DNA from: Candidatus Latescibacterota bacterium
GTDB taxonomy: Bacteria; Latescibacterota; UBA2968; GCA-2709665
Assembly (NCBI GenBank): GCA_965219455.1
Contig: OZ244744.1
Location: forward strand, 5,728,001 to 5,792,000
Reading direction: 5' to 3'
Length of the DNA: 64,000 nucleotides
Shown here: piece after piece, positions 5,014 to 34,493 of the stretch
Position numbering within the stretch: the first letter of the stretch is position 1
Layout of the letters: every line of letters begins with the position of its first letter
The notes under the pieces: generated by a model
Told to the model about the DNA's origin: nothing
What the model saw: only the letters and a program-made list of their open reading frames with translations
The model's database searches: none
Position numbers and translations under genes: made by a program

Positions 5014-5057
5014 TGATCACCCCCACATCCGGTCCGGCGAAAGTCTGTTGGCGCTGC

Positions 5058-5543
5058 TCAACCTACTTTCGCGATGGAATCGATGCGGATCTTGTCCTGG
5101 AGTTTCAGAACGCCCTCCAACAAGGCCTCCGGCCTCGGAGGGCAGCCCGGTACATAGATATCAACCGGTACAACCCGGTCGACACCCTTCAATACGTGGT
5201 ATCCGTGCTGCCAGTACGGGCCGCCGGAAGTGGCGCAACAACCCATGGACATCACGTATCTGGGTTCAGCCATCTGGTCGTACAATTTCTTCACGCGAGT
5301 GGCCATTTTCAAGGTAACCGTGCCGGCCACAATCATCAGATCGGACTGCCGGGGCGTGGCGCGCGGGACCATGCCCAACCGCGACCAATCGTACCGCGAC
5401 GCCCCCGTGGCCATCATTTCTATGGCGCAACACGCCAATCCGAACGTCATCGGCCAGAGCGAGGACAGCCGCGCCCAGTTGACGAAATAATCGACCGACG
5501 TTACAATTACGTTATCCTGAAAACGGCCTGTGAGCTTTCCCAT
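5058..5543 (-). CDS. nuoB: NADH-quinone oxidoreductase subunit B
   Basis: [36 protein letters not shown]; start at MGKLTG after GGAGG. Confidence 0.96.
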
Positions 5544-5687
5544 GGACGAACATGCCTCCTGAAGCGTCCAACCAAGACTATGGAACTCGAACACCGTGAA
5601 AGGCTGCGAATTGAGACCAGGTAAACAAAACAAGTGGGGCGCGGTTCAACCCACGCGCCTTGGGCCTGACCGGATCCGGTGAGCGGA

Positions 5688-13153: not shown

Positions 13154-13648
13154 ATGGGACTTGAGACGGGACTTGGCGACAACGTTATCACGACCACGCT
13201 GTCGAAAATGATTAACTGGGCGCGCAAGTCATCCCTCTGGCCAATGCCATTCGGCACGGCTTGCTGCGCCATCGAAATGATGGCCACGCTTTCCGGGCGC
13301 TTCGACATGGCTCGCTTCGGCGCGGAAGCTGTACGGTTCTCGCCACGTCAGTCCGATTTGCTCATTGTATCAGGCCGGATATCGATCAAGATGATGCCGG
13401 TACTCAAGAAGATATACGATCAGATGCCGGATCCAAAGTGGGTGATCTCGATGGGCGCCTGCGCATCGTCTGGGGGTGTTTTCAATACGTATACGCTGGT
13501 ACAGGGCGTCGATCAATTCCTGCCGGTCGATATCTACGTGCCCGGCTGTCCACCCCGACCCGAGGATCTGCTGTTTGCGCTGATGAAGATCCAGGAAAAA
13601 ATAGACCGGGAACATCCTGCAAAGCCAGCAGTGGCGCTTGAGTCCTGA
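13154..13648 (+). CDS. nuoB: Second, stand-alone NuoB-family Fe-S protein
   Basis: [49 protein letters not shown]. Confidence 0.93.
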
Positions 13649-13688
13649 CCGCCCTGGCAACGCACATCTCTCTAGGGGGAAGGTCGAT

Positions 13689-14273
13689 ATGAACATTACC
13701 GTAACCGAAGCCGCGCAGAAGGAGGTTGTCAACCTGATCCGGAATCAGGAGTCGGCCATCGTTGGCGTTCGTGTCAAGGCAGAGGCTGTATCGCCTCTGC
13801 AGGCCAACTACCGACTCGCTTTTGTCGCCAGTGGACAGGAAGACGAAGAAGACGACGTCACCCCGTTCGATGGGTTCAATGTCTACATAGACACGGAAAG
13901 CGCCCCGTATGCCCAGGACATCATCCTGGACTTTGTGGACGGCCTGATGGGTAGAGGTTTCAAGATAGAAAACCCCAACAAGGTACCCCCTCACCTGAAA
14001 GGCACCACTGCCGAGAAGATCCAGAACATCATCGACGAGAAGATCAACCCCAGCGTGGCCATGCACGGCGGACATATCTCACTGATCGACGTAAGAGACA
14101 ACAAGGCATACATCCAGTTCGGGGGCGGATGCCAGGGTTGCGGCATGGTGGACGTGACGCTCAAGCAGGGGGTCGAAGTCCTCATCAAGGAGGGCGTGCC
14201 CGAAGTCGAAGAAATCCTCGACGTGACCGAACACGCGGATGGCTCAAACCCCTACTACCAGCCCTCGAAATAA
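13689..14273 (+). CDS. nfuA: NfuA-like Fe-S carrier (A-type-like N domain + Nfu C domain)
   Basis: ITVTEAAQ...GFKIENPN N-domain; INPSVAMHGG, FGGGCQGCGMVDVTLKQGVE, DVTEH..G.NPYY. Confidence 0.9.
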   Translation: MNITVTEAAQKEVVNLIRNQESAIVGVRVKAEAVSPLQANYRLAFVASGQEDEEDDVTPFDGFNVYIDTESAPYAQDIILDFVDGLMGRGFKIENPNKVPPHLKGTTAEKIQNIIDEKINPSVAMHGGHISLIDVRDNKAYIQFGGGCQGCGMVDVTLKQGVEVLIKEGVPEVEEILDVTEHADGSNPYYQPSK

Positions 14274-14349: not shown

Positions 14350-15777
14350 TTGCCTACCATCTCCCGATCGCGTCCGTTCAAAGTCGTGCTGGTGTCCACC
14401 TACGAATTGGGTCGTCAGCCGTTCGGTCTGGCCTCGCCGGCCGGATGGCTACGTAGAGCTGGTTTCGACGTTGTCCAAGCGGACGTTTCAATAGACGACT
14501 TTCCTGACAAAGCCGCTCGCGACGCCGATCTGGTGGCATTTTACGTGCCCATGCATACCGCGACGCGGCTTGCCGTACCGCTTGCCTTAAGAACCCGCGA
14601 ACAGAATGCCGACGCTCACCTGTGTTTCTATGGGCTTTACGCTTCCGTTAACGAATCCTTCCTGCGAAGCCTGGGCGCACAGACCATACTCGGCGGTGAA
14701 TTCGAAAACGGACTGCTTCAACTCTGCAACCGCCTCCGGGGGACTTCAGGCACTACGGGAAACCAGGACGAAACCGTCGTTTCCCTCGACAGACAGCGGT
14801 TTCTTCCGCCCGACAGGACAGGCCTTCCGGACCTGTCCCTTTACGCGCGACTATCCACGGGTGACGGGCATCTGAAAACCGTCGGCTATACAGAGGCCAG
14901 CCGAGGCTGCAAACACCTCTGTCGCCACTGCCCCGTCGTACCCGTGTACGGGGGCAGATTCCGGATCGTGCAACCGGAGATTGTGCTGGACGACATCGTG
15001 AAACAGGTTGCAGCGGGGGCCGGTCATATCACGTTTGGTGATCCGGACTTCTTCAACGGCATCGGCCACGCAATGCCACTTGTCGAAAAGCTCCACGCGG
15101 AATTTCCCGACGTGACCTACGACATCACCGTCAAGATCGAACATCTGCTGAGGTATAGTCGCTATCTGACCGTCCTCAGAGATACCGGGTGCGCACTTGT
15201 CACGACTGCCGTAGAGTCTCTCGACGACCGCGTCCTCACGCTGTTGGACAAGGGCCATACGGTCGCCGACTTTTTCGAGGTCGTACACCTCTTCCGAAGA
15301 CACGGACTCGTCATGAATCCGACGTTTATCCCGTTTACGCCCTGGATCACCGTGGCGGGGTATGCCGGCTTCCTGGACACCCTCGCCGACCTGAACCTGA
15401 TCGAGCATGTCTCCCCCGTTCAACTCACCATCCGGCTGCTCATCCCCAGGGGATCAAAGCTTCTGGACCTTGCCCAGGTTCGCGACTCGGTGGGTCCGTT
15501 CACACCCGAAGCCCTGTCTTACCCGTGGGCGCATCCGGACGTCCGTTTGGACCGTCTCCAACGCGAACTTACCCGGTTGGTCACCCGGTGTCAGAATCGG
15601 GACGCCACCCGACGAGAGATCTTCCACGGAATCCGGTCGTATGTCCACGGCCTGATAGGCCGCCCGGCCCCAGTGACAGATTCCGACGCGGACTCGACCC
15701 GCCAATCCCTTCCCCGCCTGACCGAGCCGTGGTATTGCTGAGCGGAGCCAACCGAAGAGCAGTTCGCTCTTGTCTAA
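14350..15777 (+). CDS. CUAEP/CCAEP-tail radical SAM selenoprotein (TGA 15739-15741 read as Sec)
   Basis: CKHLCRHC radical SAM motif and N-terminal B12-binding-like domain; past the TGA the frame reads GCG GAG CCA ACC GAA GAG CAG TTC GCT CTT GTC TAA = C-U-A-E-P-T-E-E-Q-F-A-L-V*; start uncertain (TTG 14350 after CAGGA). Confidence 0.88.
15742..15771 (+). promoter_or_regulatory. Bacterial SECIS-like hairpin
   Basis: AAGAGC (15755-60) / loop AGTTC / GCTCTT (15766-71); loop starts 19 nt after UGA with G at its second position. Confidence 0.7.
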
Positions 15778-15848
15778 TCGGAAGAACCTCGTAGAAAGAA
15801 TGACCTGGACACACCGGTCTCGGTCCCACCGGATTGCATGTGACTTTT

Positions 15849-17078
15849 TCATCCCTCAATCACAACTGCGATCCGGCCGTTTGCCTCGCGAAGGGCCGCT
15901 TCCGCCGCCTCGGGTGTCTTCTCGCGTACGAGGATGAACCCCAGATACCGGTCTCCCTCGGGCAGCGGTTGTACGGACTGACCCGGAGCAATGGTTATCA
16001 TGACGTCGATAATTCCAGGCACACGCCGTGCACGTGTGATCCCCCGAACGCACCGCAGAATCCCCGGCTTCGACACCGGCAGCATCAAAACGCCGGCCGC
16101 GGTGTTTTCCCTCCGTAAATCGCCAGGAGCGCGCCCCGTTGCCTGGCGTAGAATCAGTTCCTCCAACGACCTGCCGGTGCCAAAACGCAATACGCGCGAA
16201 CACAGCCCGCCGATGGACCGCGCTGCGATTTCAACCACGTAGATGCCCCGCGTGTTCAGCCGAAGCTCGGCATGTACGGGACCCACGGTCAATCCCAGGG
16301 CACGCGCGGCCTTCTGCGCGGTCTCACGGACCTGCGCCTGCAGGCATTCGGACAGCCGGGAGGGCGTTATGTACAGCGTCTCGGCAAAATACGGCCCACG
16401 CAGCGGATCCGGTTTGTCGAACAAGGCGAGGGTCTGCAACTCTCCCTCAACAAGCAATCCCTCCAGCGCCACCTCCCGGCCGGGAATGTAGTCCTCCACC
16501 AGAATACAATCTCCGCCTTCGGGCAGTTTGCGCGCAGATTCCGAAATCAACCCCAGAATCCGGTGGAAAGCAGTCACGAAATCCACTTTTTTATCTGCCC
16601 GAATCACACCGCGGCTGGCAGACAGAAACACGGGCTTCAGTACGCACGGATAGTCCACCATCGCGGCGGCGGCTTCCGGTTCTTCCGAAACTAAAAAAAG
16701 CCTGAACCCCGGCGAGGGCAGGCCTTTTCCAGCAAGCATCTGGCGCATTACGTGTTTGTACCGGGACGCCCGGACGGACTTGACCGAATTGTGCGGAAGT
16801 CCGAGTGCGCTGCAGGCCATCGCGGCGAGCACGACGGTCTCATCGTCCACTCCCACCACCGACCGGACGGGGTACGCCTTCGCAAACGCGACAATCTTCT
16901 CGACCGAGGCTGCCGGCTTTGCAAAATCCAACGCCAGCGTATTTCCCGGTGTCTGACTCGCCAGCGCCTGGCGGCGGTCGGACCCCACGACCACGGCCAC
17001 ATCGAGCGTCGCCGCTGCGGCCATAAAATCTTGAGTGCGATAGGACGTTGTCGGAATAAGTAGCAGAAGCCGGTTCAT
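15849..17078 (-). CDS. ATP-grasp domain ligase (L-amino acid ligase-like)
   Basis: YPCVLKP...SASRGVIR, LVEDYIPGREVALEG, PVHAELR, VEIAARSIGG, C-terminal RYLGFI domain. Confidence 0.88.
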   Translation of the reverse strand: MNRLLLLIPTTSYRTQDFMAAAATLDVAVVVGSDRRQALASQTPGNTLALDFAKPAASVEKIVAFAKAYPVRSVVGVDDETVVLAAMACSALGLPHNSVKSVRASRYKHVMRQMLAGKGLPSPGFRLFLVSEEPEAAAAMVDYPCVLKPVFLSASRGVIRADKKVDFVTAFHRILGLISESARKLPEGGDCILVEDYIPGREVALEGLLVEGELQTLALFDKPDPLRGPYFAETLYITPSRLSECLQAQVRETAQKAARALGLTVGPVHAELRLNTRGIYVVEIAARSIGGLCSRVLRFGTGRSLEELILRQATGRAPGDLRRENTAAGVLMLPVSKPGILRCVRGITRARRVPGIIDVMITIAPGQSVQPLPEGDRYLGFILVREKTPEAAEAALREANGRIAVVIEG

Positions 17079-17091
17079 GGCCGCCCCGGCC

Positions 17092-17154
17092 TAACAGCCC
17101 GTTAAAAAGTCCATCCGGCCTCGCCTGCAGAGCAACTTTATCAACGGACCGCTA
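17092..17154. mobile_element. Degenerate MITE-like element with imperfect terminal inverted repeats
   Basis: TAACAGCCCGTTAAAAAGT ... ACTTTATCAACGGACCGCTA; right end supplies the TAG stop of the GerW-family gene. Confidence 0.45.
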
Positions 17155-17553
17155 CGCGCTCACGTCGTCATCACCGGAATCTGTCTCGGCCTCTGCCTCG
17201 GCTTTCTTCCGGTCTCTCTTCTCCTTGAACGCTTTCACCCTTGCCAGAAGGTCCGGTGCCAAATCCAACAACCCTTTAATGGACCCTTCTTTCTCCTGTA
17301 CGGGAAGAATCTGGGCCTTTCCGTCTCGAATCACAACGAATGCCACGGGTTCCACGGATGCCCCGCCTCCCGTGCCGCTTCCGCTGCCGTCCGTCTTGTC
17401 CGCACCCCCGCCCGCGCCGAACCCGAACGAAATCCTGGAAACAGGCACCACGACAGTCTCGCCTATTTCGATCGGCTCTCCCACGACCGTCTCCGCCTTG
17501 ACAATTTGTCGGAATTCCGTCATCACAGTCCTGATGAGATCCTCAACAGACAT
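17152..17553 (-). CDS. GerW/YtfJ family protein
   Basis: TVVGEPI, VPVSRISFGFGAGGG, GGGASVEPVAFVV. Confidence 0.88.
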   Translation of the reverse strand: MSVEDLIRTVMTEFRQIVKAETVVGEPIEIGETVVVPVSRISFGFGAGGGADKTDGSGSGTGGGASVEPVAFVVIRDGKAQILPVQEKEGSIKGLLDLAPDLLARVKAFKEKRDRKKAEAEAETDSGDDDVSA

Positions 17554-17573
17554 AATGCCTCCTCAAAGCCCGC

Positions 17574-18272
17574 TCAACTCGTCGCGCCGACCCGCATTAC
17601 GCCCTCCTGCTGACGTTTCTTGCTGCGTCGTTCGGAAAACCATGCAAGCACTCCGCGCCATGCAATGTAAACAGACGCGCACAATAGCCGGTGTGGAAAA
17701 ATCCAGACTTCCACTTCGCCTTCACCGTCCAGGTGCTGCCGCCTGAAATCGGGTGTCGCGTCTACGCATCCTCTTGACCCCATTAAAGACGAGGCCGCCA
17801 TGAAGTATCCGAAAACCTGCCCGGTCGTGGCCGGATCGGATGCGCCGAAAGCGACCTTGCATGAAATGCGGCGCAAACGGAACCCGTTCAGAAGTTGCGA
17901 CGCAGACCGTCGCAGAGGCAACCACAGTCTTTTGAGATAGAGCCCAAACCGCTCCAACCGTTCGACCGTTGTCCGGAACCCGTCCGGAACATCCGGTTCC
18001 GTTTTAACTCGATCCTTAGCGTTTCGTTTCTTCTTTCGATCGTCTTCCTTCTTCAACGACGCTGCCCACACTGTCCACCAACCCAAAAGCGCACCCACAC
18101 GCCAGCCGCCGCCAGCATAGAAAAGCCGGATACCCGCCAAACCGATCCACGGCCTCAAACGAATTTCCAGCGCCGGTTCCCGCCCTCCGCCGAAGTGGCC
18201 GCGCGCCCACAGACGGGCCGGTGGCAAAACAATCAATACGACCGCAAAAAGCAGGAAAACGAGTATAGTCAT
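17574..18272 (-). CDS. DUF2953/YtfI-like membrane-anchored protein
   Basis: N-terminal TM segment, FGASDPATTG..G and PDF motifs; usual partner of YtfJ. Confidence 0.7.
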   Translation of the reverse strand: MTILVFLLFAVVLIVLPPARLWARGHFGGGREPALEIRLRPWIGLAGIRLFYAGGGWRVGALLGWWTVWAASLKKEDDRKKKRNAKDRVKTEPDVPDGFRTTVERLERFGLYLKRLWLPLRRSASQLLNGFRLRRISCKVAFGASDPATTGQVFGYFMAASSLMGSRGCVDATPDFRRQHLDGEGEVEVWIFPHRLLCASVYIAWRGVLAWFSERRSKKRQQEGVMRVGATS

Positions 18273-31486: not shown

Positions 31487-31864
31487 ATGCCGCTGACCAT
31501 CAACAAAACCATCCGGCCAAACGCGATCTGGCAGGAGATGTATCTGCGGGTACAAAGCGATCAGCGCCTCGTCATTTCGGCCGAGGGCATATGGTCGCCC
31601 GAGATGCGTCCGGCCACCATCGTCTGGTGCAGCGCGAATGGAATCGAAGGCAACCTGGCCGGAGACGACTATCTTCTGCCCGGCACCAACGTAGGCGCCC
31701 TGATCTGCAGGGTCGGTTCGGATAATCCGCCCCTTGTTGCAGGGGTCTATTTCGACTTTTTCTCACCCTACCAAGGACCGCTATATATGGCAATGAACGA
31801 AAACCCCGAATATCAGAACCAGGCCGGCTCGATTCAGGCCCAGATCATTCTGTTTGAACCGTGA
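31487..31864 (+). CDS. LecA/PA-IL-like small beta-sandwich protein
   Basis: LVISAEGIWS, GALICRVG, QGPLYMAMNE...YQNQAGSI align by eye with PA-IL ITIVAAGWAS, GALVMKIG, QGAITLIYND...YGNNSGSF. Confidence 0.65.
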   Translation: MPLTINKTIRPNAIWQEMYLRVQSDQRLVISAEGIWSPEMRPATIVWCSANGIEGNLAGDDYLLPGTNVGALICRVGSDNPPLVAGVYFDFFSPYQGPLYMAMNENPEYQNQAGSIQAQIILFEP

Positions 31865-32652
31865 TCCTGGTCAACGTCGTCCGCTATCTCATCAGGGAGT
31901 ACGGCCTCTCCCTGGTCTTCGTTTCCCTCACGCTTGGCATATGGGAAGTGCTGGTGTTTGCATGGGACATTGCAGACTATATCCTGCCGGCGCCGTCGCG
32001 AATCCTCGGTAAACTGATCTCGGCGCGCTACACGCTTTTGTCCCACGCCTGGGTGACCCTGCAGGAAGCGCTCTGGGGTTTTCTTCTCGGCGCCAGCACG
32101 GGCATCGCCGGCGCGATTGTCATGGCTCGTTCTCCCATAATCGAGCGAATGCTCTATCCCATCGTCATCTCTTCCCAAACCTTTCCAAAAGAAGCACTGG
32201 CCCCGCTCTTTATCGTCTGGTTCGGCCTCGGGCTGCTCCCGAAGGTGATTATCGCCGCGCTCATTTCTTTTTTTCCTGTCATTATCAACACGACACGCGG
32301 CCTGCTTGCCGTGGACCCGCTCATTCTGGATCTGATGCGGGCGCTTTCCGCGGGGCGGCACCAGATTCTAATCAAAGTCCGCCTGCCGAACGCCATTCCT
32401 TATCTTTTCGCCGCCCTTAAAATCTGCGTCACCCTGAGTGTTATCGGTGCGGTTGTGGGAGAATTCGTGGGCGCCAGCGCCGGCCTGGGGCACCTCACGC
32501 GGCTGGCCAACTCCGAGCTGGCTACGGATCTGATGTTCGCCGCGCTGATTGTGCTTGGCGCGATGGGCACGCTCCTTTTTTTGATTGTGGAAGGCCTGGA
32601 AAAACTCCTGCTCAGACGCTGGGGCGATTTCCATGAACCACTCAGGCGATAG
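31861..32652 (+). CDS. ABC transporter permease (SsuC/TauC/NitT type)
   Basis: ILPAPSRI, PKEALAPLFIVWFG, KVRLPNAIP, GAVVGEF...GLG. Confidence 0.93.
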   Translation: MILVNVVRYLIREYGLSLVFVSLTLGIWEVLVFAWDIADYILPAPSRILGKLISARYTLLSHAWVTLQEALWGFLLGASTGIAGAIVMARSPIIERMLYPIVISSQTFPKEALAPLFIVWFGLGLLPKVIIAALISFFPVIINTTRGLLAVDPLILDLMRALSAGRHQILIKVRLPNAIPYLFAALKICVTLSVIGAVVGEFVGASAGLGHLTRLANSELATDLMFAALIVLGAMGTLLFLIVEGLEKLLLRRWGDFHEPLRR

Positions 32653-32674
32653 AACAACCCACGGGGGGATTCCA

Positions 32675-33646
32675 GTGAACCGTCTGGTCTGGCTGCTTTT
32701 CGCCTTTCTGACCGCCTGCGGCAAACCACCGGAGACATTACAGCAGATTCAGTTGCTTCTGGACTGGAAAGCACAGATGGAACACGCCGGCTTTTTTGTG
32801 GCGAAAGCGAAGGGATATTACCATGCCGAGGGGATCTCGGTTGAGATTCTCGAAGGTACAGGAGCGCCTACGACCGCTCGCCTGGTGGGCAGTGGCAAGT
32901 ATCAGCTCGGGATTTCCAGCGGCTCAGCCACGCTGATCGCGCGCGCAAGAGACATCCCCGTGGTCTCCCTCGCCGTGATAAACCAGCATTCGCCGGTTGT
33001 GGTGTACGCGTTGGAAGAGAACGACATCCGAAAACCGGAAGATCTTATCGGCAAACGGGTTGGCGTCAATGTCGGGGGCACCAAACATCGGGAATTCCAG
33101 GCTTTTCTCAAAAAGGTGGGCATCGATGAAGACCGCGTTCGGCTGATGGGAATGACGGAATCCAGCCCCGCCCCCCTGCTTGCCGGAAAAGTCGATGCCA
33201 TGCTGGGTTATACCGAAGACCAGCCGGTAACCGTAGAACTCCGGGGTCGGGAGGTAACCCGTATTTCGTTTGCCCAATACGGTATCGACCTGTACAGCAC
33301 CAACGTCATTGCCAATGCCGACTATCTGAAAAAGAACCCGGACGTCGTGCGCAAATTCGTCCGCGCCAGTATGAAGGGCTGGCGCTACGCCGTCGATCAC
33401 CCGGAAGATGCCGTTGCCGCATATACGGCCTACCGCCCGGAAAGCAATGCCGAATTCAATCGGGCCAATTTCGAACAGCTCGTCCCCATATTGATGAGCC
33501 CGGACGTTGAACGCCTCGGGTTGGGTGCGCAAACCACCGAACGGTGGTCGCACACACAGGACATTCTGTTCGATCTGGGTCTGATCGACAGAAAGATCGA
33601 AGTTTCCCGGCTGTTCGTTGCCGACCTGCTGCCGCCGGTTCCCTGA
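32675..33646 (+). CDS. ABC substrate-binding lipoprotein (NMT1/THI5/SsuA type)
   Basis: Lipobox LTAC, LDWKAQMEHAGFFVAKAKGYY..EG, LLAGKVDA, KGWRYA; GTG 32675 (alternative ATG 32633). Confidence 0.9.
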   Translation: MNRLVWLLFAFLTACGKPPETLQQIQLLLDWKAQMEHAGFFVAKAKGYYHAEGISVEILEGTGAPTTARLVGSGKYQLGISSGSATLIARARDIPVVSLAVINQHSPVVVYALEENDIRKPEDLIGKRVGVNVGGTKHREFQAFLKKVGIDEDRVRLMGMTESSPAPLLAGKVDAMLGYTEDQPVTVELRGREVTRISFAQYGIDLYSTNVIANADYLKKNPDVVRKFVRASMKGWRYAVDHPEDAVAAYTAYRPESNAEFNRANFEQLVPILMSPDVERLGLGAQTTERWSHTQDILFDLGLIDRKIEVSRLFVADLLPPVP

Positions 33647-33734
33647 TCGTGGCACTTCGGTCTTCCTGGCGGAACCGCGTAATCTCCCAACACAGGTAGT
33701 CTGTGGCGACGCCCTATCCCGGCGGCCAGGCGAA

Positions 33735-34493
33735 TCACGTGTCCCGTCCCGCCAGCAGAGTCCTGAGGTGCGCCACCATCTCCACGAAACTCGGCTGGAC
33801 CAGCAATTCCACGTTTCTCGGTCTCGGAAAATCCACCTCGACGTTGCCCACCAGGCGGCCCGGACGAGCCGACATCACGACGACCCGGTCCGAAAGCAGA
33901 ATGGCCTCCGGGATGCTGTGGGTAATAAAAAGGACCGCGGGCTTTGTAACCCGCCATATTCGCAGCAACTCCAGCTGCATTCTCTCCCTTGTAATTTCGT
34001 CCAGAGCGCCGAACGGTTCGTCCATCAGCAATACGGCGGGGCGGTACGTCAGCGCCCGGGCGATGGCCACCCGTGACTGCATGCCACCCGAAAGCTGCCT
34101 CGGATAGGACTGCTCGAACCCCTGCAGCCCCACGGCCCGAATCATCTCCCCGGTCTGCGCTCCCACCTCAATATCGTTAAAGATCTCTCCAGGCAGACGC
34201 ACATTTTCCTCCACCGTGCGCCAGCCCATCAGGGCGGGACTCTGAAAGACCACGCCAATCTCCCGTGCTCGTCTCGCGTCCGCCGGCAGCTTTCCGTTCA
34301 CCCGAACCATACCCGACGTCGGCACCTCCAGGTCGCCGACGATGCGCATCAGGCTGGTCTTTCCGCAACCGGAGGGCCCGACAACACTCACGAAAGCGCC
34401 CTGCTGAACCTGCAAATTCACGCCTTTCAACGCCGCCACCCGCCCGGAATCGCTCTCAAACACCTTGCTCACGCCACAGACGTCAATGGCCAC
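33735..34493 (-). CDS. ABC transporter ATP-binding subunit (SsuB/TauB/NitT type)
   Basis: GPSGCGKT, YPRQLSGGMQSRVAIARAL, MDEPFGALDEITR, THSIPEA, MSARPG. Confidence 0.95.
   Translation of the reverse strand: MAIDVCGVSKVFESDSGRVAALKGVNLQVQQGAFVSVVGPSGCGKTSLMRIVGDLEVPTSGMVRVNGKLPADARRAREIGVVFQSPALMGWRTVEENVRLPGEIFNDIEVGAQTGEMIRAVGLQGFEQSYPRQLSGGMQSRVAIARALTYRPAVLLMDEPFGALDEITRERMQLELLRIWRVTKPAVLFITHSIPEAILLSDRVVVMSARPGRLVGNVEVDFPRPRNVELLVQPSFVEMVAHLRTLLAGRDT

Follow-up and report, generated by a model that had tools for sequence, protein, structure and literature searches.

How a selenoprotein from the superfamily of radical S-adenosylmethionine (SAM) enzymes and an amino acid ligase encoded next to it could act together is the question raised by the locus described here. 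The locus is part of a stretch of 64,000 nt from a Candidatus Latescibacterota bacterium (assembly GCA_965219455.1, contig OZ244744.1, positions 5,728,001 to 5,792,000). The whole stretch is here referred to as the window and all positions are counted from its first nucleotide. The first gene (14350..15777, plus strand) encodes a radical SAM selenoprotein with a CUAEP/CCAEP tail. It was assigned by its match to the NCBIfam model NF040546, with the in-frame TGA translated as selenocysteine (Sec, U). The second gene (15849..17078, minus strand) encodes an ATP-grasp protein of 409 aa of the L-amino-acid-ligase (LAL) type and was assigned by its Pfam domains and by co-occurrence. The stop codons of both genes face each other with a spacing of 71 nt, which agrees with the convergent pair about 70 nt apart noticed in a preliminary description of the sequence.

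The family of the radical SAM protein has already been named. New is the finding that it has a fixed enzymatic partner which acts on amino acids. The preliminary description had read the pair as a candidate pathway for an organo-metalloid amino acid or peptide, with a radical SAM enzyme resembling ArsL of arsinothricin biosynthesis. From this interpretation the kinship with ArsL and the conserved partner stood, and the two checks named there as refuting did not overturn the idea. Arsenic is backed by no arsenic or metalloid gene context in this family, and the chemistry is still conditional.

Pairing of the two genes

The surroundings of the radical SAM gene were compared in 81 loci, i.e. the window and the 80 best relative loci. 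One of these (locus L088 of genome G015) is marked as unpublished; it accounts for one of the 81 loci, one of the ten DUF169 cases and one of the eleven unlinked ligase orthologs mentioned below. A ligase ortholog with an identity of 41-87% was located within 8 kb of the radical SAM gene in 57 of the 81 loci. In 45 loci it lay immediately downstream in the same orientation. A convergent arrangement was present in five loci, consisting of the window and its closest relatives. In another five the ligase gene was found downstream past a gap of more than 400 nt, four times with an intervening DUF169 gene, and in two loci it was located upstream.

In total, 24 loci had no ligase gene nearby, seven of them short-flanked and 17 well-flanked. 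Fifteen genomes of the latter were searched (L060 and L077 were left out). An unlinked ligase ortholog was encoded elsewhere in 11 of the 15 genomes, with scores of 508-622 bits that correspond to the range of the linked copies.

The phyletic distribution was determined in 125 genomes of the window's phylum with a completeness of at least 90%. The radical SAM gene was carried by 29 genomes and the identical 29 carried a ligase ortholog (at least 373 bits), without a single discordant genome. Three further genomes of one genus had only a ligase paralog of about 180 bits. Genome counts are not independent through kinship; counted by genus, ten had both genes, 27 had neither and one had the paralog only. 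The distribution was patchy by family (20/20, 0/27, 3/3, 3/54 and 2/2 genomes). Furthermore, the pairing was found in metagenome-assembled genomes (MAGs) labelled Latescibacterota, Gemmatimonadota, Acidobacteriota, Methylomirabilis, Verrucomicrobiia and Proteobacteria, in differing arrangements.

Judged from gene content, the co-location and the matching phyletic pattern go beyond chance and show that the radical SAM gene and the ligase gene are functionally linked. The conserved ATP-grasp partner that the preliminary description expected from a neighbourhood survey is therefore confirmed by 57 of 81 loci and by the co-occurrence in 29 of 29 genomes.

The radical SAM protein

With Sec entered as Cys, the protein scored 609 bits against NF040546 (cut-off 500) and matched profile positions 1-467 of 468. 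A genome search detected a single copy of this family in the host (602.8 bits, one TGA). According to the profile match the protein is a full member of NF040546, the CUAEP/CCAEP-tail radical SAM (seleno)protein family. An alternative in-frame start codon, ATG at 14239, overlaps the upstream NfuA-like gene. The TTG at 14350 is the more likely start, since homologs have about 457-466 aa and the NF040546 profile begins at residue 49 of the ATG frame.

The family is large. In a word-indexed search at least 8000 proteins (clusters) were found at E <= 1e-10, and among 600 matched stretches listed from species-representative genomes at least 577 were relatives. A preprint by Haft from 2022 describes the family as uncharacterised and its structure and function as 'not well known' (10.1101/2022.07.06.499078). 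The terms 'ATP-grasp', 'ArsL' and 'DUF169' have zero occurrences in the text of this preprint. No functional study of the CUAEP/CCAEP family or of its pairing with a ligase was found in the open-access papers and preprints that were searched.

The motifs named in the preliminary description were largely recovered. The CxxxCxxC core is present as CKHLCRHC (14908..14931, plus strand) and provides the predicted ligands of the radical SAM [4Fe-4S] cluster. Its residues C187, C191 and C194 were invariant in 43 family members and in a 13-sequence alignment with ArsL-like proteins. Pfam Radical_SAM (PF04055) was matched with 41.7 bits (threshold 29.5). The N-terminal motif STxExGxQP is present as STYELGRQP, of which E, G, Q and P are invariant across the CUAEP and ArsL-like families. 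Two features had been overstated. The match of the supposed B12-like N domain to Pfam B12-binding (PF02310) reached 21.6 bits and stayed below the threshold of 32.1, and the C-terminal tail, described as Cys-rich, carries one Cys-Sec pair.

The tail motif E-P-W-Y-C-U-A-E-P (15724..15750, plus strand) was strongly conserved in the 43 sequences. E459, W461, C463, position 464, E466 and P467 were invariant, and P460, Y462 and A465 were conserved to at least 90%. An additional Cys, Cys281 (DTGC; 15190..15192, plus strand), was invariant in the CUAEP family and unconserved in the RCCLKC-tail/ArsL-like family. It occupies the first position of a predicted strand (residues 281-286) and possibly represents a third thiolate.

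An AlphaFold2 model was calculated from the 43-sequence alignment (mean predicted local distance difference test (pLDDT) 89.9, predicted template modelling score 0.90). The pLDDT fell to 70 in the linker and was 81-85 in the blocks of the tail, and the tail is accordingly predicted to be docked, not disordered. With Foldseek the top solved match was AprD4 (E 5.7e-16, TM-score 0.67-0.70), followed by TsrM, OxsB and MgmA, at identities of 14-18%. For ArsL a sequence search of the PDB returned no structure. According to a review, AprD4 and ArsL homologs bind no cobalamin (PMC12931638).

A cultured carrier of the family is Thermomicrobium roseum DSM 5159, with the gene on its megaplasmid (L104:7947-9455). 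The record of this protein is truncated at the Sec codon, as the DNA runs on in frame with TGA-GCG-GAG-CCG (U-A-E-P). A pyridoxal-phosphate-dependent aminotransferase and a major facilitator superfamily (MFS) transporter are encoded next to it. A ligase ortholog is absent from the 0.9-Mb megaplasmid record; the search covered this record, not the chromosome.

Selenocysteine in the tail

The frame of the radical SAM gene contains a TGA (15739..15741, plus strand) which is followed by 11 codons (AEPTEEQFALV) up to the TAA at 15775-15777. The predicted C-terminus reads ...LPRLTEPWYC-U-AEPTEEQFALV. Translation of this TGA as Sec is based on the conserved in-frame coding beyond it, on orthologs with Cys and on SelB. 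In 50 of the 81 loci the codon after the conserved Cys (position 464) was a TGA continued in frame by [AV]EP, here named Sec type, and in the remaining 31 it was a Cys codon, here named Cys type. All 29 copies in the window's phylum had one TGA. The Sec machinery of the host genome was examined via SelB, which scored 366.6 bits (cut-off 242.25).

A hairpin resembling a selenocysteine insertion sequence (SECIS) begins 13 nt past the UGA (15755..15771, plus strand). It consists of a 6-bp stem (AAGAGC/GCUCUU) and the loop AGUUC and was identified by comparison of the 50 Sec-type loci. A stem of at least 6 bp at the SECIS position was present in 36 of these loci compared to 10% of shuffles. The stems covary, with 22 distinct 5' arms, and the loops were mostly AGUU. 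The single-sequence fold of 15730-15800 was no better than shuffles (z -0.16), so that the hairpin claim rests on the 50-locus comparison. No curated SECIS family stands behind it, since Rfam gave no match in the whole window at gathering thresholds.

Cys-type loci, e.g. L016 and L020, keep a weaker hairpin: 12 of 31 have a stem of 6 bp or longer, compared to 8% of shuffles. Either it is left over from an ancestor with Sec, or it arises as a side effect of codon conservation at E-E-Q-[LF]-A. Since Cys-type loci also retain it, part of the hairpin signal may reflect codon conservation.

The features by which a bacterial selenoprotein is recognised, i.e. an in-frame UGA, a hairpin behind it, SelB and Cys homologs at the same position, were all found at the sequence level. 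A selenoprotein with a CU tail had been proposed in the preliminary description, and the conserved frame beyond the TGA in most of the loci supports it.

Relationship to ArsL

The ArsL model NF040542 was the second-best NCBIfam match of the radical SAM protein (267.6 bits, E 2e-79, cut-off 450), and the next family followed with 42.5 bits. A tblastn search of plasmid records resulted in 37 matches, namely one CUAEP member (the protein of T. roseum) and 36 RCCLKC-tail/ArsL proteins with 29-33% identity. In the 13-sequence alignment, which included six RCCLKC/ArsL-like proteins, both families aligned throughout the core of about 400 residues. The resemblance to ArsL pointed out in the preliminary description therefore holds as kinship but not as identity. 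The score below the 450-bit cut-off, the different tail and a stretch of about 50 extra residues ahead of the tail identify a sister family of ArsL, not ArsL itself.

ArsL cleaves SAM to methylthioadenosine (MTA) and an aminocarboxypropyl (ACP) radical, and As(III) is bound by the Cys motif at its C-terminus (10.1101/2024.02.01.577332; 10.64898/2026.04.29.721666), where three tail cysteines hold it (10.64898/2026.04.29.721666). Among radical SAM enzymes of the canonical fold (PF04055), ArsL is so far the only one known to form an ACP radical (10.64898/2026.04.29.721666) and a C-As bond. A variant that retained just the CC pair (MCCA) had the highest activity on methylarsenite (PMC13598754). 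CU motifs are described by Haft as rare and associated with heavy-metal proteins (10.1101/2022.07.06.499078).

The ATP-grasp ligase

Three Pfam domains were matched above their cut-offs by the ATP-grasp protein: ATP-grasp_4 (109.9 bits), LAL_C2 (66.7 bits) and ATPgrasp_N (45.5 bits). The nearest solved relative was the L-amino acid ligase BL00235 (3vot) with E 1.5e-35, improving to 7.9e-69 with the family profile. BacD was matched with E 3.5e-16 to 5.6e-16 by the single sequence and with about 3e-29 to 4e-29 by the family profile. No NCBIfam equivalog was reached (BacD 67.8 vs 850 bits; DdaF 45.8 vs 840 bits). Among 22 ligase orthologs 64 columns were invariant, including the regions of K148 and E271/E283. 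By its domains and homology the second gene product is a LAL-type ATP-grasp enzyme, as the preliminary description had assumed.

Products reported for BL00235 include Met-Gly and Met-Met (PMC6920838). The ligase would suit an ACP-type amino acid, because its closest relative uses Met, which shares the 2-amino-4-X-butanoate skeleton with the product of an ACP transfer.

A ligase of this type is also found with ArsL-like proteins. Of the 36 plasmid records that encode an RCCLKC-tail protein, 35 also had an LAL-type ATP-grasp gene, at a distance of 0.2-3.5 kb and inside arsenic clusters; the 36 records correspond to about five lineages, as 20 Bacillus records are near-identical. The exception was the arsQLM cluster of Pseudomonas amygdali. 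Carriers were the Bacillus cereus group (L106, pBc10987), Priestia (L107), Alicyclobacillus (L108), Pantoea (L109) and Klebsiella (L110). The companions within the clusters varied and comprised ArsM, an MFS transporter, an aquaporin, a CobW-like GTPase, a GNAT protein, ArsR and a small CMD-family or unassigned protein.

The ATP-grasp proteins of the ArsL clusters matched the Pfam domains ATP-grasp_4 and LAL_C2. Compared to the CUAEP-associated ligase their identity was about 19% (hhalign probability 99.7%, E 1.7e-25), and BL00235 was the best match of both groups. The nearly constant presence of such a ligase suggests that ArsL-like clusters may make peptide forms of arsinothricin. No report of an arsinothricin peptide or of a corresponding ligase was found in open-access papers and preprints. 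The observation of a ligase in the ArsL clusters may have greater practical weight than the main finding.

Proposed reaction and alternative explanations

The reading we favour, at somewhat less than an even chance, is an ArsL-like ACP transfer from SAM to a thiophilic atom on the Cys-Sec pair, after which the ligase would form a dipeptide. As in ArsL, SAM would be cut by the radical SAM enzyme at the C-gamma-S bond, with release of MTA. The ACP group would pass to the thiophilic atom bound by Cys and Sec, for which a trivalent metalloid (e.g. As or Sb) or a chalcogen is the candidate. This would give 2-amino-4-X-butanoate, a non-proteinogenic alpha-amino acid with the shape of methionine. The ATP-grasp ligase would then couple the new amino acid to a second one, like LALs do in the formation of bacilysin-type antimetabolite dipeptides. 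We infer this chemistry from the relationship to ArsL, from where the tail lies and what it consists of, from the partnership with an amino acid ligase and from the parallel in the arsenic clusters; the family identity, the Sec in the tail and the functional link to a LAL-type ligase are its established parts.

Several observations weigh against this proposal. Four of the 15 searched genomes had no ligase ortholog at all. In three of these four another ATP-dependent amide-forming enzyme is encoded next to the radical SAM gene, namely GCS2 (L015), a Mur-ligase-like protein (L037) and a protein resembling a nonribosomal peptide synthetase (NRPS; L046), which are possible substitutes for the ligase. 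In a reverse survey starting from 80 metagenomic loci that matched the ligase profile, the radical SAM gene was found within 4 kb in only 24, was missing from 15 loci whose flanks measured 1.5 kb or more on either side, and 41 loci were too short-flanked. In line with the unlinked copies, this indicates that adjacency is common, not obligatory.

The gene context also counts against the proposal. No ars, metalloid-uptake, methyltransferase, exporter or self-resistance genes were conserved with the pair in the 81 loci, and an ArsR-family (L079) and a MerR-family regulator (L080) were found in one locus each. The window itself contained no ars, uptake, export or resistance genes either. The recurrent neighbours are housekeeping or Fe-related genes (aconitase, YggX, NfuA, and Suf in the window). 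Additionally, the tail offers two chalcogens compared to the three As(III)-binding Cys of ArsL, and the extra residues ahead of it separate it from the core. With an identity of just about 19% between the two ATP-grasp groups, the ligase parallel could be convergent. Which residues direct the cleavage of SAM to C-gamma or to C5' is not known according to a recent preprint (10.64898/2026.04.29.721666), so that the formation of MTA is unreadable from the sequence.

The choice of the atom is narrowed by SelD. It scored above its cut-off in six of ten Cys-type genomes and was absent from four, one of which, a MAG of 2.3 Mb, may be incomplete. Selenium is therefore unlikely as an obligatory substrate, and its candidacy as a substrate in general is weakened.

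An unlikely but substantial alternative is canonical 5'-deoxyadenosyl radical chemistry on a small molecule or on a dipeptide made by the ligase, e.g. an epimerisation, a dehydration or the formation of a C-C or C-S bond. The Cys-Sec pair would then serve as H-atom donor or as a redox selenenylsulfide arm, for which thioredoxin reductase offers a comparison. The interchange of Cys and Sec at position 464 (31 vs 50 of 81 loci) would fit, being typical for redox-active sites, as would the housekeeping and Fe-related neighbours without metalloid genes, which suit an ordinary metabolism. The conservation of the tail well past the two chalcogens (EPWYCUAEP) is expected of a docking arm. Against this alternative, the chalcogen pair lies at the very C-terminal end, like the tail with which ArsL binds As. 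The best structural neighbour AprD4 is a diol dehydratase that forms 5'-deoxyadenosine, with a Rossmann-like N domain and no cobalamin (PMC12931638). Its likeness at 17-18% identity amounts to mere shared architecture, whereas the nearest sequence relative by far is ArsL, which makes an ACP radical.

An ACP radical might also be formed without an exotic heteroatom, which we consider improbable. It would yield L-2-aminobutyrate, if quenched by the selenol or thiol, or, via a persulfide or selenopersulfide on the tail, homocysteine or selenohomocysteine, and the ligase would then make a dipeptide. This route to 2-aminobutyrate or homocysteine is costly compared to the supply by ordinary metabolism, which counts against it, and the absence of SelD from four Cys-type genomes speaks against a selenium-specific role. 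It would agree with the genes for sulfur mobilisation (Suf, Nfu) of the window and the Fe-trafficking genes elsewhere, with the use of Met by BL00235 (PMC6920838) and with ArsL itself, which in the absence of arsenic gives homoalanine by uptake of H or D (PMC13598754).

Quite improbable is a modification of proteins or peptides, in which the ATP-grasp enzyme, like RimK, LysX or PGM1, extends a C-terminus or a side chain by further residues, maybe on the tail of the radical SAM protein itself, and in which the radical SAM enzyme tailors a peptide. The strong conservation of the tail and C-terminus beyond the CU pair would be explained, and the ATP-grasp superfamily does contain protein and peptide ligases; RimK and LysX were weakly matched by the family profile (E about 3e-06 to 5e-06). 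However, LAL_C2 and ATPgrasp_N belong to the domain set of free-amino-acid ligases, LALs were the best matches by tens of orders of magnitude, and no precursor-peptide gene recurred between or beside the pair in the 81 loci. That both genes are unrelated neighbours kept together by synteny only is extremely improbable: most of the 80 loci do come from related Acidobacteriota in which aconitase and YggX are syntenic too, but the pairing extends across several phyla in differing arrangements, the two genes occur or are missing together in every one of 125 genomes although their distribution is patchy, and the ligase is kept though unlinked in 11 of 15 genomes.

If the ACP transfer to a thiophilic atom is taken further, the pair would represent a widespread two-gene pathway of soil bacteria, in which a Cys-Sec sister of ArsL makes an organo-metalloid or organo-chalcogen amino acid from SAM and a dedicated ligase makes a dipeptide of it. 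The same logic would extend to the ArsL-like clusters, with an arsinothricin-type peptide instead of the free amino acid. As a whole this generalisation is tentative and rather doubtful. Should the proposed chemistry be right, Acidobacteriota, Latescibacterota, Methylomirabilota and others would contain a new class of metabolites, amino acids or dipeptides with a heteroatom, and it would provide a rationale for the use of the rare Cys-Sec motif. The sister family is much larger than ArsL, and most of the members examined are selenoproteins (50 of 81 loci; in the window's phylum, 29 of 29 copies). With its ligase partner, an 'uncharacterised selenoprotein' becomes a concrete two-enzyme hypothesis.

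Genes surrounding the pair

In the window, the radical SAM gene is preceded on the plus strand by genes for SufB, SufC, SufD, SufS and SufU, a SufT-like protein, an Rrf2 regulator, a NuoB-like and an NfuA-like protein. Its position right behind Fe-S supply genes was thus correctly described before. The immediate neighbour is the gene of the NfuA-like Fe-S carrier (13638..14273, plus strand; TIGR03341 159 bits, cut-off 269; Pfam NifU and Fe-S_biosyn), which is given here as context and not as a demonstrated part of the system. An NfuA homolog was present in 11 of the 81 loci. No terminators or promoters were predicted in the 71-nt spacer or upstream, and no tRNA genes were found in the 64-kb window.

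Two NuoB-type genes are present in the window, at 13154-13648 (plus strand) and at about 5020-5560 (minus strand). One of them holds the expected position in the nuo operon, with nuoA and nuoC on either side. The extra copy (TIGR01957, 230.9 bits) is inserted in the suf cluster a short way upstream of the radical SAM gene, with the Rrf2 regulator on one side and the NfuA-like gene on the other.

Downstream of the ligase gene (17152-18272, minus strand) a GerW/YtfJ-family 'sporulation' protein and a weakly matching DUF2953 protein are encoded. The former scored 81 bits (equivalog cut-off 116) and 78.8 bits against Pfam Spore_YtfJ. The closest relatives of the source genome are labelled Latescibacterota or Gemmatimonadota, groups in which spore formation is not known.

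An ABC transporter at 31861-34493 (permease, substrate-binding protein and ATPase) gave sub-threshold matches to SaoP (107 vs 295 bits), SaoX (49 vs 300 bits) and SaoA (202 vs 360 bits), which are models of Haft's selenocysteine-assisted organometallic system. It is probably an ordinary transporter, with equal or higher scores for sulfonate, taurine or nitrate types.

Across the 81 loci the most recurrent neighbours were a YggX-type Fe(2+)-trafficking protein (46 loci), aconitase (39), glucokinase (24) and glucose-6-phosphate dehydrogenase (22). We take them as lineage synteny, since the mapped loci that have them are located in records labelled Acidobacteriota. A DUF169 (PF02596) gene adjoins the radical SAM gene in ten of the 81 loci (e.g. 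L080:4543-5262 and L051:9540-10292) and is located between both partners in four. The DUF169 gene of the host genome (L089), found between lgt and a chlorite-dismutase-like gene, was rejected as a member of the system and is taken as a paralog, with 195 bits compared to 315-375 bits for the co-located DUF169 proteins.

One locus (L046:8001-16920) shows the order radical SAM gene, DUF169, UbiE-like methyltransferase and a 400-aa protein with a CdhD domain and a 2x[4Fe-4S] ferredoxin part, resembling a fusion of HgcA and HgcB. The convergent NRPS-like gene nearby (formyltransferase-A-T-TE) belongs to this locus, whose genome has no ligase ortholog. UbiE, DUF169 and MerR are listed next to HgcA-like genes of Nitrospina in a preprint (10.1101/648329).

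Comparison with known systems

Compared to the family NF040546 the radical SAM protein of the window is the same throughout, including CxxxCxxC and the C-U-A-E-P tail, and no difference was found. With AprD4 and the class B radical SAM enzymes TsrM, OxsB and MgmA it shares the two-domain architecture. It differs from the cobalamin-dependent class B enzymes by the sub-threshold match to Pfam B12-binding and by the low identity of 14-18%.

Common to ArsL and the window protein are an N-terminal motif, S-x-[FY]-E-x-G-x-Q-P, the core of radical SAM enzymes, an N domain of the Rossmann-like type and a C-terminal pair of vicinal chalcogens. The tail of ArsL (R-C-C-L-K-C) contains three Cys and that of the window protein (C-U-A-E-P) two chalcogens, and only the CC/CU pair aligns. 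Unlike ArsL, the CUAEP family has about 50 additional residues preceding the tail and its own invariant Cys281. The gene surroundings differ as well: arsM, arsQ, arsN and ars resistance genes were found neither in the 64-kb window nor recurrently in the 81 loci, and no aquaporin gene or ars operon is located near the window gene.

The ligase shares the three-domain architecture of known LALs, i.e. BL00235 of Bacillus licheniformis and BacD/YwfE of bacilysin synthesis. In contrast to these, it belongs to an orthologous group of its own, which follows the radical SAM gene.

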